Of a DNA stretch of 21,775 bases, positions 13,026 through 19,075 are shown piece by piece; position 1 is the first letter of the stretch; every line of letters starts with the position of its first letter. Origin of the DNA: a virus (taxonomy: Duplodnaviria > Heunggongvirae > Uroviricota > Caudoviricetes); IMG/VR virus record IMGVR_UViG_2565956731_000002; one strand, written 5' to 3'. The notes beneath the pieces are model-generated. The model did not search any database. It had not been told where the DNA came from and saw only the letters and a list, made by a program, of their open reading frames with translations. Position numbers and translations under genes: made by a program.

Positions 13026-13409
13026 ATGCGTGATATTCAGATGGTTCTTGAGCGTTGGGGAGCGTGGGCGGCTAATAATCATGAAGATGTGACCTGGTCG
13101 TCCGTTGCCGCCGGTTTTAAGGGATTAATTCCTTCAAAAGTAAAATCTCGCCCGCAATGTTGTGACGATGACGCGATGATCATTTGCGGGTGCATGGCCC
13201 GTCTGAAAAAGAACAACAGCGATTTACACGATTTATTAGTAGATTATTATGTATGTGGTATGACATTCATGTCACTGGCAAGTAAGCATTGCTGCTCGGA
13301 TGGTTATATCGGGAAAAGGTTACAGAAGGCTGAGGGCATAATTGAAGGGATGTTAATGGCATTAGATATCCGGTTAGATATGGATATCGTTGCTAATAAT
13401 TCTAATTGA
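13026..13409 (+). CDS. quuD: Late-gene antiterminator Q (DLP12 QuuD-like)
   Basis: [26 protein letters not shown]…[18 protein letters not shown]… recognised as QuuD-type Q; ATG at 13026 with GGAG upstream (the ORF track begins at an upstream TTG at 13011). Confidence 0.85.
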
Positions 13410-13424
13410 TATGCAATTGTTTAC

Positions 13425-13597
13425 TAAAAGTTATTAAAAATGGGGCGTGGAAACGCCCCCAAAATAAAGGGTAATATATAACAGAAGGTTTATATAGTAA
13501 GAAGCAAGGTAGTGCTTCTAAAGGAAGTGGCTTGAGGGCTCCACTTATATGTTGCGGAGGCAAAGCCTCCCGCAACATATCTTTTTCGTAAGTCAGA
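13425..13597 (-). ncRNA. ipeX: nmpC 3' UTR with its own minus-strand terminator; corresponds in position to the IpeX regulatory RNA described downstream of nmpC/lc
   Basis: Highly structured stretch between the porin stop (13598) and a minus-strand hairpin GGGGCG-TTTCCA-CGCCCC (13442..13459) followed by AUUUUUAAUAACUUUU. The published description places ipeX between the nmpC stop and its terminator. Confidence 0.4.
13547..13588 (+). terminator. Plus-strand intrinsic terminator about 140-180 nt downstream of Q; candidate tR'-type terminator of a short 6S-like late leader
   Basis: ATATGTTGCGGAGG-CAAAG-CCTCCCGCAACATAT (about 14-bp stem with one bulge) followed by CTTTTTCG. It is not a terminator on the minus strand, where there is no U-run after the hairpin. 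Confidence 0.5.
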
Positions 13598-14680
13598 TTA
13601 GAACTGATAAACCAGACCTACAGCGACGATGTCGTCGGTATCAATACCAGCTGTTTTGGTAAACTTACTATCGTCAATTAAGTTGATTTTGTAATCAACA
13701 AAAGTGGACATGTTTTTATTAAAGTAGTAAGTAGCACCGACATCGACATACTTGACTAAGTCTCGGTCACCATGAACACCAAGGTCTTTACCTTTTGACT
13801 GAAGGTAAGCAACAGATGGTCGCAGACCGAAGTCAAACTGATATTGTGCTACTGCTTCAAAGTTTTGTGCTTTGTTTGCAATATGGTTATTACCAAAAAC
13901 GGTCATATTCTGAGTTTCAGAATATGTGGTAGCCAGATAGATATTGTTCGCATCATATTTCAGGCCTGCAGCCCATACTTCCGCATTTTTGCCGGAGGCA
14001 TTGAATTTGCTCTTACCATAGGCGACCTGACCGTCAGTGCGATCTGATTTAGCATAGGTTGCACCCACGCCGAATCCTTCATACTCATAAGTAGTGGAGA
14101 AACCGAAACCATCACCATTGGCTTCAGTTACGTCAGTGCGGTCATTTTTACCCTGATACTGAGCAGCAAAGTTCAGGCCATCGACCAGACCAAAGAAGTC
14201 GTTGTTACGATAAGTTGCAACACCAGTAGTGCGACCAGTCATGAACACATCTGTTTGGGTCCAGGTATCACCACCGAATTCTGGCAGGACGTCAGTCCAC
14301 GCACCGATGTCGTATGCTACACCGTAGTTACGGCCGTAATCGATTGAGCCGTAATCACCAAATTTCAGGCCTGCAAATGCAAGACGGGTTTTGTCTTTGG
14401 AAGAACCTTGAGATTCAGCACGGTTGCCTTTGAATTCATATTCCCACTGACCGAAACCAGTCAGTTGATCGTTGATTTGGGTTTCACCTTTGAAGCCAAG
14501 ACGGGCATAAGTAGTATCACCATCATCTGCATCATTAGAGGAGAAGTAGTGCTTGGCATTAACTTTCCCGTATAGATCCAGCTTGTTACTGTCTTTATTA
14601 TAAATTTCAGCTGCCTGAGCAGACATCGCCATCAGTACTGATGCAGCTACAGCAGAAATTGCCACTGTTAATTTTTTCAT
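13598..14680 (-). CDS. nmpC: OmpC/OmpF-family general porin (NmpC / Lc type), intact, with signal peptide
   Basis: [40 protein letters not shown]… and the C-terminal …VAVGLVYQF are typical enterobacterial trimeric porin; location between Q and the holin as in DLP12/PA-2. Confidence 0.9.
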
Positions 14681-15108
14681 TGTACGCCCTTTTTTTTGAA
14701 CTATTATTAAAAAATGATGTCACTGCGCGATAAATATTCATCTAATCAATGCGATTATTTCAAGATGTAAGTTTTAGTTTCTCATTTAATTTGTGAAGTA
14801 GATCTCTATTTTTATCTGAACCTTTTCTATCTAATCCTATTCATGGCTCTTGTTTGAACGAAAATAAATCTATTAGCTAATTTATATTAATGGCACTTAT
14901 TTATAAGCGCTCTATAATTCTTTAACTTAATTTAAACAAACTAAAAATAACATCGGAAATTATTCATTGGTTATTTGTTGAAGTTTTCTTATGTATTTGT
15001 GGTGGTGTTTTGAACACTCGGTGGCATTCTCACAAATATCATTTAGTAGTTTACGTACGTAAAAAATTGGTTATGCTGTTAAGAGTGGTTACTTCGTCAC
15101 ACAGCTTA

Positions 15109-15140
15109 AACCCGCCGTCGAGCGGGTTTTTCCATTTTTT
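15109..15140 (+). terminator. Plus-strand intrinsic terminator inside the 590-bp AT-rich region between the porin start and the holin
   Basis: AACCCGC-CGTCGA-GCGGGTT hairpin followed by TTTCCATTTTTT; no ORF of meaningful size upstream on the plus strand. Confidence 0.55.
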
Positions 15141-15269
15141 GAGTCTCGATATTAGCTGATAACCCAATACCTGAGTTATTCACTGACTCCGAATCTGTTA
15201 CGTTTCTGCCTTTATTGCGATACGTAGTATCCCCTTAATTTACACCCGCTTTGTCTGCGAGGTGGGGTT

Positions 15270-15485
15270 ATGAAATCCATGGATAAGTTAACAACGGGTG
15301 TCGCCTATGGCACCTCAGCAGGTAGTGCCGGGTACTGGTTTTTACAGTTGCTCGATAAAGTCACGCCCTCACAGTGGGCGGCAATAGGTGTGCTGGGTAG
15401 TCTGGTATTTGGCTTGCTGACGTATCTGACAAACCTTTATTTCAAGATTAAAGAAGATAAGCGTAAGGCTGCGAGAGGTGAATAA
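15270..15485 (+). CDS. essD: Phage 21-type class II holin/pinholin with dual-start motif (Met1-Lys-Ser-Met4)
   Basis: [71 protein letters not shown] closely matches S21 as remembered; GAGGTGGGG ribosome-binding site; stop overlaps the next start (TAATG). Confidence 0.85.
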
Positions 15486-18400
15486 TGTCGCCATCATTAC
15501 GCAAGGCTATTGCTGCTGCTATTGGTGGTGGGGCTGTTGCCATAGCGTCTGTGCTCATCACTGGTCCGAGTGGTGACGATGGCCTGGAAGGTGTCAGCTA
15601 CATACCATACAAAGATATTGTTGGTGTATGGACTGTATGTCACGGGCATACAGGAAAAGACATCATGCTCGGTAAAACGTATAAAGGCAGCAGTAAGGGG
15701 CATACCCCGCGCGAAGCGAAGGACAACCTGAAATCCACGCAGTTACTGAGTGTGATCGATGCCATCAGCGAAGGGCCGATTGAAGGTCCGGTGGATGGGT
15801 TAAAAAGCGTGCTACTGAACAGTACGCCGGTGCTGGACACTGAGGGGAATACCAATATCTCCGGTGTCACGGTGGTGTTCCGGGCAGGTGAGCAGGAGCA
15901 GACTCCGCCGGAGGGGTTTGAATCCTCCGGCTCCGAGACGGTGCTGGGTACGGAAGTGAAATACGACACGCCGATCACCCGCACCATCACGTCGGCAAAC
16001 ATCGACCGTCTGCGTTTTACCTTCGGTGTGCAGGCACTGGTGGAAACCACTTCAAAGGGTGACCGGAATCCGTCGGAAGTTCGCCTGCTGGTTCAGATAC
16101 AGCGTAACGGTGGCTGGGTGACGGAAAAAGACATCACCATTAAGGGCAAAACCACCTCGCAGTATCTGGCCTCGGTGGTGGTGGATAACCTGCCTCCGCG
16201 CCCGTTCAATATCCGGATGCGCAGGATGACACCGGACAGCACCACAGACCAGCTGCAGAACAAAACGCTCTGGTCGTCATACACCGAAATCATCGATATG
16301 AAACAGTGCTACCCGAACACGGCACTGGTCGGTGTGCAGGTGGACTCGGAGCAGTTCGGCAGTCAGCAGGTGAGTCGTAATTATCATCTGCGCGGGCGCA
16401 TTCTGCAGGTGCCGTCGAACTATAACCCGCAGACGCGACAATACAGCGGTATCTGGGACGGAACGTTAAAACCGGCATACAGCAACAACATGGCCTGGTG
16501 TCTGTGGGATATGCTGACCCATCCGCGCTACGGCATGGGGAAACGTCTTGGTGCGGCGGATGTGGACAAATGGGCGCTGTATGTCATCGGCCAGAATTGC
16601 GACCAGTCGGTGCCGGATGGTTTTGGTGGCACGGAGCCGCGCATCACCTGTAATGCCTGGCTGACCACACAGCGTAAGGCGTGGGATGTTCTCAGTGATT
16701 TCTGCTCGGCGATGCGCTGTATGCCGGTATGGAACGGGCAGACGCTGACGTTCGTGCAGGACCGGCCGTCGGATAAGGTGTGGACCTATAACCGCAGTAA
16801 TGTGGTGATGCCGGATGATGGCGCGCCGTTCCGCTACAGTTTCAGCGCCCTGAAGGACCGCCATAATGCCGTTGAGGTGAACTGGATTGACCCGGATAAC
16901 GGCTGGGAGACGGCGACAGAGCTTGTGGAGGACACGCAGGCCATTGCCCGTTACGGTCGTAACGTCACGAAGATGGATGCCTTTGGCTGTACCAGTCGGG
17001 GGCAGGCACACCGAGCCGGGCTGTGGCTGATTAAAACGGAACTGCTGGAAACGCAGACCGTGGATTTCAGCGTGGGCGCAGAAGGGCTTCGCCATGTGCC
17101 GGGCGATGTTATTGAAATCTGCGATGATGACTATGCGGGTATCAGCATCGGCGGGCGCGTGCTGGCGGTGAACAGCCAGACCCGGACGCTGACGCTCGAC
17201 CGTGAAATCACTCTGCCATCCTCCGGTACCACGCTGATAAGCCTGGTTGACGGAAGCGGCAATCCGGTCAGCGTGGAGGTCCAGTCCGTCACCGACGGCG
17301 TGAAGGTAAAAGTGAGCCGGGTTCCTGACGGCGTTGCCGGATACAGCGTGTGGGGGCTGAAGTTGCCGACGTTGCGCCAGCGCCTGTTCCGCTGCGTGAG
17401 TATCCGTGAGAACGATGACGGCACGTATGCCATCACTGCCGTGCAGCATGTACCGGAAAAAGAGGCCATCGTGGATAACGGGGCGCACTTTGACGGCGAC
17501 CAGAGCGGCACGGTGAATGGTGTCACGCCGCCAGCGGTGCAGCACCTGACTGCCGAAGTCACCGCAGACAGCGGGGAATATCAGGTGCTGGCGCGCTGGG
17601 ACACGCCGAAGGTGGTGAAGGGGGTGAGCTTTATGCTTCGCCTGACCGTGGCAGCGGATGACGGCAGTGAGCGGCTGGTCAGCACGGCCCGGACGACGGA
17701 AACCACATACCGCTTCACGCAACTGGCGCTGGGGCGGTACACGCTGACAGTCCGGGCGGTAAATGCGTGGGGGCAGCAGGGCGATCCGGCGTCGGTATCG
17801 TTCCGGATTGCCGCACCGGCAGCACCGTCGAGGATTGATCTGACGCCGGGCTATTTTCAGATAACCGCCACGCCGCATCTTGCCGTTTATGACCCGACGG
17901 TACAGTTTGAATTCTGGTTCTCGGAAAAGCGGATTACCGATATCAGGCAGGTTGAAACCACAGCCCGCTATCTTGGCACGGCGCTGTACTGGATAGCTGC
18001 CAGTATCAATATTAAGCCGGGCCATGATTATTATTTTTATATCCGCAGTGTGAATACTGTTGGCAAATCGGCATTCGTGGAGGCTGTCGGTCAGGCGAGC
18101 GATGATGCTTCCGGCTATCTGGATTTTTTCAAAGGCCAGATAACTGAATCCCATCTCGGCAAGGAGCTGCTGGAAAAAGTCGAGCTGACGGAGGATAACG
18201 CCAGCAAACTGGAGGAGTTTTCGAAAGAGTGGAAAGACGCCAACGATAAATGGAATGCCATGTGGGGCGTCAAAATTGAGCAGACCGAAGACGGCAGGCA
18301 TTATGTCGCGGGTATTGGCCTCAGCATGGAGGATACGGAGGAAGGCAAACTGAGCCAGTTCCTGGTTGCCGCTAACCGTATCGCGTTTATTGACCCGGCA

Positions 18401-19075
18401 AACGGGAATGAAACGCCGATGTTTGTGGCGCAGGGCAACCAGATATTCATGAACGAAGTGTTCCTGAAGTATCTGACGGCTCCCACCATTACCAGCGGCG
18501 GCAATCCGCCGGTATTTTCCCTGACACCGGACGGGCGGTTGACGGCGAAAAATGCCGATATCAGCGGTAACGTGAATGCGAACTCAGGGACGCTCAATAA
18601 TGTCACGATTAACCAGAACTGTCGGATTCTGGGAAAACTGTCTGCCAACCAGATTGAAGGTGATATTGTCAAAACGGTGGGAAAAGCCTTTCCGAGAAAT
18701 GGCAGTTATGCCAGCGGTACAATAACGGTCACTGTGTACGATGACCAGGCTTTTGACCGTCAGATAGTAATCCCACCCGTTCTGTTTCGCGGTGGTAAGC
18801 ATGAAAACTTCAACAGCAACAACCAACAGTCATACTGGTATTCAACCTGTAAGCTGCAGGTACTGAAGAACGGACAGGAAATCTTTCAGCAACCCGCGAC
18901 GGATGTCAGCAGGGTATTTTCATCCGTCATTGATATGCCAGCGGGACACGGCCATGTCACCCTGACTTTCAATGTTTCTTCATATGGTGCAAATAACTGG
19001 ACGCCAACGACCAGTATCAGCGACCTTCTTGTTGTCGTGATGAAGAAATCAACAGCCGGTATCAGTATCAGTTGA
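15485..19075 (+). CDS. J: In-frame deletion fusion: first ~65 codons of a SAR endolysin (R21-like) joined to nearly full-length tail-tip host-specificity protein J (from J residue ~3)
   Basis: N-terminus [66 protein letters not shown] matches the R21 SAR endolysin start; from ~15677 the sequence [39 protein letters not shown]… is lambda J from its N-terminus through >1000 aa. The last ~150 aa diverge from lambda J. Confidence 0.85.

Follow-up and report, generated by a model that had tools for sequence, protein, structure and literature searches.

The gene-free interval between the porin and holin genes of a defective lambdoid prophage is best explained as two modules: the control region of a porin moron (14681 to about 15045) and, following it, the late promoter unit pR' of the antiterminator QuuD (15046–15140). 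The term moron denotes a cargo gene that is self-contained, bringing along a promoter and a terminator of its own. We give this reading, which is drawn from sequence comparison, a probability of about 0.8. By the same comparison, the interval appears to hold an unannotated Q-dependent late cassette of a well-known kind, whose mechanism would be the textbook one; such a cassette is defined by a Q gene, the promoter pR', a pause element, a terminator and the late genes.

The interval and its prophage setting

The stretch of DNA that we analysed, hereafter the window, is 21,775 nucleotides long and represents a defective lambdoid prophage. The interval spans 589 bp (14681–15269) and is flanked by the ATG of a porin gene on the minus strand (14680–14678) and by the start of essD at 15270. 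Its gene-free and AT-rich character, from which the original prediction had set out, is borne out: the list of open reading frames holds none of at least 50 aa inside it, no RefSeq feature is annotated in the equivalent segment of the best-matching E. coli genomes, and the AT-rich part is made up of its left 365 bp (14681–15045), with 27.4% G+C against 41% in 15046–15140, 44% in 15141–15269 and 47.6% in the whole window. On the left, quuD (13026–13409, plus strand) encodes a Q antiterminator of 127 aa (Pfam PF06530, E = 9e-54; QuuD in RefSeq) and the porin gene (13598–14680, minus strand) an nmpC/lc/OmpD-like protein of 360 aa (Pfam Porin_1, E = 2e-151), annotated as a porin in genomes and phages. 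On the right, downstream of the promoter/terminator unit, the lysis-operon leader (15141–15269, plus strand) is followed by the late lysis genes, that is, essD (15270–15485, plus strand; Pfam PF04971, E = 2e-35; annotated as essD), the first late gene, which encodes a phage-21-type holin, and then a truncated lysozyme gene.

The interval is identical to its copy in E. coli FDAARGOS_536, where the genes are arranged in the order ybcN, ninE, ybcO, rusA, ylcG, quuD (plus), porin (minus), essD (plus) and part of a lysozyme gene joined to what remains of a tail gene. Of 5,426 complete E. coli genomes, 3,277 (about 60%) contain this interval, as do 43 phage records, among which are viable phages, PA-2 and a 434 hybrid with the DLP12 region. 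The viable phages share the order Q, porin, promoter/terminator unit, holin gene, and the segment 15036–15150 is base-for-base identical to theirs.

Several other features of the window lie outside this unit or at its edge. The essD leader is most variable at 15201–15220, where K-12 carries a 17-bp deletion. A single long open reading frame (15485–19075) joins the first ∼66 lysozyme codons to a fragment of the host-specificity (J) tail gene, and both parts are pseudogenes in the matching RefSeq genome; this fusion indicates that a deletion took the remaining lysis genes along with the head and tail genes. The early region carries cargo of its own (5737–11088), comprising a large inverse autotransporter gene (intimin/invasin-like, plus strand) and an alpha/beta hydrolase gene (minus strand). 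Between the stop codons of Q and of the porin gene (13410–13597) we found a minus-strand terminator (13459–13442) and a second hairpin with a plus-strand T-run at about 13551–13585. IpeX RNA targets ompC. The two hairpins fall in the porin 3' region, which we take to be the place where this ompC repressor was described.

A predicted late promoter homologous to pR' of Stx phages

A sensitive search matched 15047–15131 to the segment located just after Q in about 320 Stx and other lambdoid phages, at 79–90% identity. In VT2-Sakai, the homologous segment is annotated as a putative late promoter, a Q-utilisation site and a possible terminator. The alignments share a −35 element TTTACG (15050–15055, plus strand), which aligns with the annotated VT2-Sakai promoter, the Q stop codon TAA inside CGTAAAAA, a −10 element (15072–15077, plus strand; TATGCT in the window versus TATCAT in Sakai), the block TAAGAGTGGTTAC and the hairpin CCCGCC...GCGGG with its T-run. 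The layout of the promoter in the window is thus TTTACG, 16 bp, TATGCT. It matches the consensus at only 8 of 12 positions and was missed by our promoter scan.

The position of the start was deduced from Stx phages. Sy et al. located the pR' start of both Sakai Stx phages by dRNA-seq, 258 nt before the 3' end of tR' determined by Term-seq. In the VT2-Sakai sequence, a length of 258 nt back from the last T of the second terminator leads to the second-last A in TAAGAG, which is located 7 nt past the −10 element, so that the homologous base of the window, 15084 on the plus strand, is the predicted start. This placement rests on the 258-nt length, the Sakai record being offset by 142 bp from the genome coordinates of the paper.

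We then considered how the promoter is conserved. A family set was obtained by scanning a viral contig collection for the conserved block, which gave 133 occurrences, namely 132 loci and the window itself. Among 48 distinct upstream sequences from relatives, T at −12 is found in 94%, A at −11 in 100% and T at −7 in 98%, three positions that were outside the search pattern, while the bases at −10 to −8 reach only 50–56%. A TAnnnT pattern of this kind, at constant spacing from the putative start, is characteristic of a sigma70 −10 element. Moreover, 15050–15077 is invariant in the 37 distinct porin-type sequences. Hence, a late promoter is likely to lie at 15050–15077, with an activity that is predicted. 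The literature search for K-12 transcript-end data on essD brought nothing usable, and a text search of the literature for the conserved DNA block returned unrelated papers only.

The homology also accounts for an open reading frame of 23 codons (14991–15062, plus strand). Its lack of a ribosome-binding site, noted at the outset, was confirmed, no GGAG-like sequence being visible before its ATG. It ends in ...SSLRT*, and the Q proteins of VT2-Sakai and H-19B end in ...NSLRS* at the same TAA, the last five codons and the stop codon being aligned with the 3' end of these Q genes. The last five codons of a Stx-type Q presumably stayed on the promoter side because they overlap the −35 element, which would explain the end of the reading frame. 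Judged by this alignment, the frame carries a vestige of the Q 3' end and is not a gene.

The early transcribed block and the predicted terminator

The element TGGTTACTTC (15086–15095, plus strand; +3 to +12), which lies inside the block TAAGAGTGGTTAC, is a candidate sigma70-dependent pause element, by analogy with the known mechanism of Q proteins. Its −10-like hexamer, TACTTC, is missing the final T. The block was part of the search pattern and its invariance in that set is therefore imposed; a second scan revealed a few variants, and in loci found via the terminator alone TGGTTAC is kept, with single exceptions. Two further observations concern this segment. The 1986 PA-2 record carries an annotated CRP-binding site exactly on the early transcribed block (15084–15104, AGTGGTTACTTCGTCACACAG), and in most relatives the block holds an inverted repeat, GTGG-N8-CCAC, which could form a small hairpin at the 5' end of the RNA.

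The predicted terminator tR' (15108–15140, plus strand) consists of a stem-loop at 15108–15129, AAACCCGC-CGTCGA-GCGGGTTT, that is, from +25 to +46 relative to the predicted start, followed by the U-tract TTCCATTTTTT up to 15140. It folds with an energy of −12 kcal/mol (z = −2.9), and 1 of 200 shuffled sequences folds equally well. Terminator-like sites are not rare (4 in 2.8 kb for 2.3 expected), so that the significance of this one comes from its conservation and not from its rarity. Of 58 distinct relatives, 52 have a terminator-like site beginning between +24 and +37, and the same test gave 3/65, 3/60 and 14/59 on control segments. At least five unrelated stem sequences occupy the position; the stem itself hardly varies, and this replacement by unrelated hairpins served as evidence in place of covariation. 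The 15108 hairpin is the only terminator-like site that the scan detected between the start and essD, and viable phages have the same arrangement; for these reasons it is most likely the terminator that keeps the holin gene silent in the lysogen. The plus-strand terminator proposed in the original prediction is real as a sequence feature, and its assignment to the late operon gains support from its conserved position. The λ-like spacing of about 190 nt between promoter and terminator does not stand: given a start at 15084 the hairpin begins at +25, and the terminated RNA would measure about 50 nt (48–51).

In 17 of the 37 distinct porin-type sequences, among them PA-2, the substitution G15124T breaks the stem and leaves a weaker alternative hairpin (CAGCUU/GAGCUG, −6.5 kcal/mol) before the same U-tract. 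As Stx phages make a 258-nt RNA, some of their polymerases at least get past the homologous first hairpin to a second terminator at +258; the 15108 hairpin may therefore terminate inefficiently. The hairpin sequence also occurs elsewhere. Out of 100 distinct viral contexts, 34 belong to this promoter type, 15 have a λ/P22-type pause motif AACGATGGG and 51 are unrelated, and with half of its viral occurrences thus unrelated, the terminator motif has no diagnostic value by itself. At several loci (L143, L146, L150, L171, L176 and others) the same hairpin, sometimes with the same downstream sequence, stands behind a λ/P22-type late promoter with AACGATGGG. The terminator and the late region seem to recombine with unrelated Q and promoter modules.

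QuuD and a candidate Q-binding element

QuuD scores 180.8 bits against the PF06530 profile (cut-off 26) and matches the chains of the solved Q21 structure over residues 8–88 (E = 3e-8). These matches place it in the Q21 family (PF06530), not in the 82 or λ families; an assignment to the phage-82 Q family had been considered and was dropped, as both Pfam and the structure search give the Q21 family. Its identity with the Q proteins of Stx phages amounts to 80–83% and covers residues 1–120 only. Residues 121–127 (13386–13409; VANNSN) are unrelated to Stx-phage Q. As the similarity stops at residue 120, the cargo junction would be inside the Q reading frame, and the C-terminal tail of Q seems dispensable or variable.

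Between the −35 and −10 elements sits the palindrome TTTACGTACGTAAA (15050–15063; −34 to −21), and a conserved A/T tract comes next, at −23 to −19. We compared the palindromes at this position with the clades of Q. QuuD and the Stx-phage Q proteins go with a TTTACG/ACGTAAA-like palindrome, while other Q clades go with TGTTATAACA, GCGGTCCGC, GCGTACGC, GGAATTCC or TTCGTTACGAA; over six classes and about 100 loci, the nearest Q relative has the same palindrome class in 54 of 54 distinct Q cores. The Q-binding elements of λ, 21 and 82 are located between −35 and −10. We read the palindrome as a candidate QuuD site on account of both its tracking of the Q clade and this location in characterised phages, and QuuD probably binds there. 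The link between palindrome and Q clade could also reflect co-inheritance rather than binding, and Q21 binds direct repeats, not a palindrome.

Cargo between Q and its predicted promoter

Although quuD lies upstream on the same strand, it is not adjacent to the unit: a cargo gap of 1,675 nt (1.67 kb) separates it from the predicted start at 15084, and its product would act on the late promoter in trans. In Stx phages the Q stop is found 22 nt before the start, and in other relatives the gaps are 10–45 nt. Most loci with a locatable Q have a gap of 590–2,890 nt, filled mainly with minus-strand open reading frames, and wherever cargo is found Q loses its likeness to that of Stx phages after residue 120. 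Besides the porin, there are two types of cargo with matches to candidate defence families, PDC-S20 (E = 1e-177) and PDC-M68A/HNH (E = 8e-27). The slot, equivalent to 13410–15045 of the window, is seen at L007, L014, L036, L064 and many other loci, and at one locus it is occupied by a TIGR04255 family protein.

Breaks between modules were located in other genomes at about 15010–15043 and just after 15131. Segments 14686–15010 (in E. coli 042, without the late-promoter part), 15043–15269, and 15054–15132 behind other cargo, are each found alone, and in strain AR_0017 the segment 14681–15131 gives way to a Stx-like late region. Together with the homology of the unit to the segment that directly follows Q in Stx phages, these data uphold the idea, voiced in the original prediction, of a porin insertion separating Q from the late promoter.

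The porin control region and proposed alternative promoters

The left module (14681–15045, 27% G+C) was analysed through its conservation profile in 37 distinct sequences. From 14681 to about 14830 it hardly changes, even in a copy whose overall identity is no more than 80%, which fits a porin leader and promoter area; the most variable segment is 14840–14940. In the record of phage PA-2, a CRP site is annotated at about 14788–14808. The AT-richness, the profile and the PA-2 site all agree with the earlier assignment of this part to control of the porin.

This region also contains the promoter put forward for the lysis operon of DLP12. The original experimental claims for a sigma-E- and Q-responsive essD promoter are reportedly those of Rueggeberg 2015. 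According to this model, a sigma-E promoter, essDp, with its +1 near 14729, would be the target of QuuD, and the 15108 hairpin a terminator or attenuator within a 540-nt leader. A sigma-E-like motif, GAACTA, 16 nt, TCACT (14698–14724, plus strand), can be read from the sequence at the position implied for the published promoter. PMC7918800, an article citing these claims, refers to control of the operon by RpoE and Q and describes a fragment from −121 to +650. In the window, the primers used for it, Pdlp12Fw and Pdlp12Rv, correspond to about 14608 and 15393, and it is from these primers that we deduced the position of essDp, about 355 bp upstream of 15084. Against this model, known Q proteins load at a sigma70-dependent pause beside their binding site, and porin-less relatives that lack the segment keep Q, the 15046–15140 unit and the lysis genes. 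Furthermore, the reporter fragment includes the whole pR' unit and, carrying both promoters, cannot tell them apart. We regard this model as unlikely; the sigma-E promoter and pR' could nevertheless coexist.

Another reading takes the hairpin to be mainly an insulator against stray plus-strand transcription from the porin region, the pR' homology being a decayed remnant. The prophage is indeed defective, its lysozyme gene being joined to part of a tail gene, promoter-like sequence abounds in the AT-rich region, and the hairpin is a common general-purpose terminator, as its 51 unrelated viral contexts indicate. Decay is difficult to reconcile with a segment that has remained base-for-base identical to that of viable phages (15036–15150), with promoter, palindrome and terminator all intact, and with an intact QuuD. 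This makes the insulator reading quite improbable.

The original prediction had placed the late promoter, or that of an independent small RNA divergent from the porin gene, at a plus-strand TATAAT hexamer. The hexamer exists at 14913–14918, one base off from where it had been placed, and ends 190 nt before the hairpin; from there an RNA of about 210 nt would run to the 15108 hairpin, as a 6S-like leader or a small RNA in its own right. The promoter scan assigned to it the −35 sequence ATGGCA at 17 nt (10 of 12 matches), and 32 of 37 sequences retain the hexamer, which is better conserved than the bases right next to it. In addition, the K-12 homologue of the AT-rich region is listed among 'promoter islands', so that some transcription from it is possible. 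On the other hand, a plus-strand TATAAT arises in 53% of dinucleotide shuffles of the interval, the hexamer sits where the region varies most and has no conserved −35, and A-to-G changes fall inside it in 5 of 37 sequences. Porin-less relatives have no TATAAT segment and yet retain the terminator and the promoter at 15050–15077, to which both the homology and the TAnnnT pattern point. Nor did we find support for an independent small RNA, a search of Rfam at gathering and permissive thresholds having returned nothing relevant and the 74-nt StxS sequence being absent. A promoter at TATAAT from which such an RNA is made is accordingly very unlikely, and rather than marking the late promoter, the hexamer is probably a promoter-like site due to chance or of minor importance.

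Discussion

We favour the two-module reading, with pR' at 15046–15140 as the late promoter unit of QuuD. Known Q proteins act on a sigma70 polymerase that pauses early at a −10-like element; the Q protein bound nearby is loaded, and terminators are then ignored. The scheme that we infer for the window, from promoter activity and exact start to pausing, Q binding and termination efficiency, follows these lines. Sigma70 RNA polymerase would initiate near 15084 from TTTACG/TATGCT and would probably pause in the TAAGAGTGGTTAC block with sigma still attached. Without Q, transcripts would stop at the 15108 hairpin, giving an RNA of about 50 nt and leaving essD silent. With QuuD, the paused polymerase would be modified and would read through into essD and what remains of the late operon.

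The closest known systems are the Stx phages 933W, VT2-Sakai and H-19B. Their Q is homologous to QuuD and their DNA is 79% identical to the window from −38 to about +50, a stretch that covers the −35 TTTACG, the palindrome half-sites, TAAGAGTGGTTAC and the first hairpin with its T-run. In Stx phages, however, Q runs into the −35 element, whereas in the window the Q gene breaks off at codon 120 and 1.67 kb taken up by the porin cargo keeps it apart from the promoter. Stx phages also have the second terminator at +258 and a functional 74-nt StxS derived from that far end. The window is devoid of this part: neither StxS(S) nor StxSL beyond +47 has a significant match anywhere in it, and only the first hairpin was found. 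Since the functional 74-nt part is absent, the unit of the window is not StxS.

The likeness to pR'/6S/tR' of λ would be one of logic: presumably constitutive initiation is followed by an early pause, transcription ends at a terminator upstream of the holin gene, and Q, once made, allows read-through. In λ the terminator lies about 190 nt from the start and the 6S leader measures about 194 nt, in contrast to the hairpin at +25 and the leader of about 50 nt in the window. The Q protein of λ belongs to a different family (PF03589), and the unit of the window has no similarity to λ 44540–44800. Phage 21 (solved Q21 structures 6P18 and 6JNX, with binding and pause elements) resembles the window in having a Q of PF06530, a phage-21-type holin and a binding element between −35 and −10, where the candidate element of the window also lies. 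However, the Q21 site is a direct repeat of TGAGCA, whereas the window has a candidate palindrome and no TGAGCA repeat, and QuuD matches Q21 only distantly, over residues 8–88. Finally, the porin is similar to known morons, lc of PA-2 and nmpC of DLP12, in having its own AT-rich control region and terminator region and in being oriented against late transcription. Its slot, between Q and the promoter, is unusual when compared with that of stx, which is downstream of pR'-tR'.

Two aspects of the system that emerged from the comparison are less ordinary: palindromes that differ from one Q clade to another, and a slot between Q and pR' that repeatedly receives cargo. Taken jointly, and tentatively, they would suggest that, for this Q21-family branch, the stretch from Q to pR' is a recurrent insertion hot spot (0.6–2.9 kb, mostly reverse cargo such as porins and candidate defence genes), that a clade-specific palindrome bound by a symmetric dimer sets Q specificity, that the RNA of about 50 nt could be regulatory, and that G15124T could set the leakiness of the lysis genes; we consider this whole set of proposals possible but doubtful.

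Our analysis places a putative Q-responsive late promoter for the DLP12/PA-2 prophage group, found in about 60% of complete E. coli genomes, at a position that coincides neither with the original prediction nor with the sigma-E essD promoter of the literature. The interpretation of experimental work on the DLP12 lysis cassette, in biofilm formation and vesicles, is affected, as the reporter fragments carry both candidate promoters along with the terminator. More generally, cargo can separate a Q gene from its promoter, and pipelines that seek the late promoter directly behind Q would miss such units.
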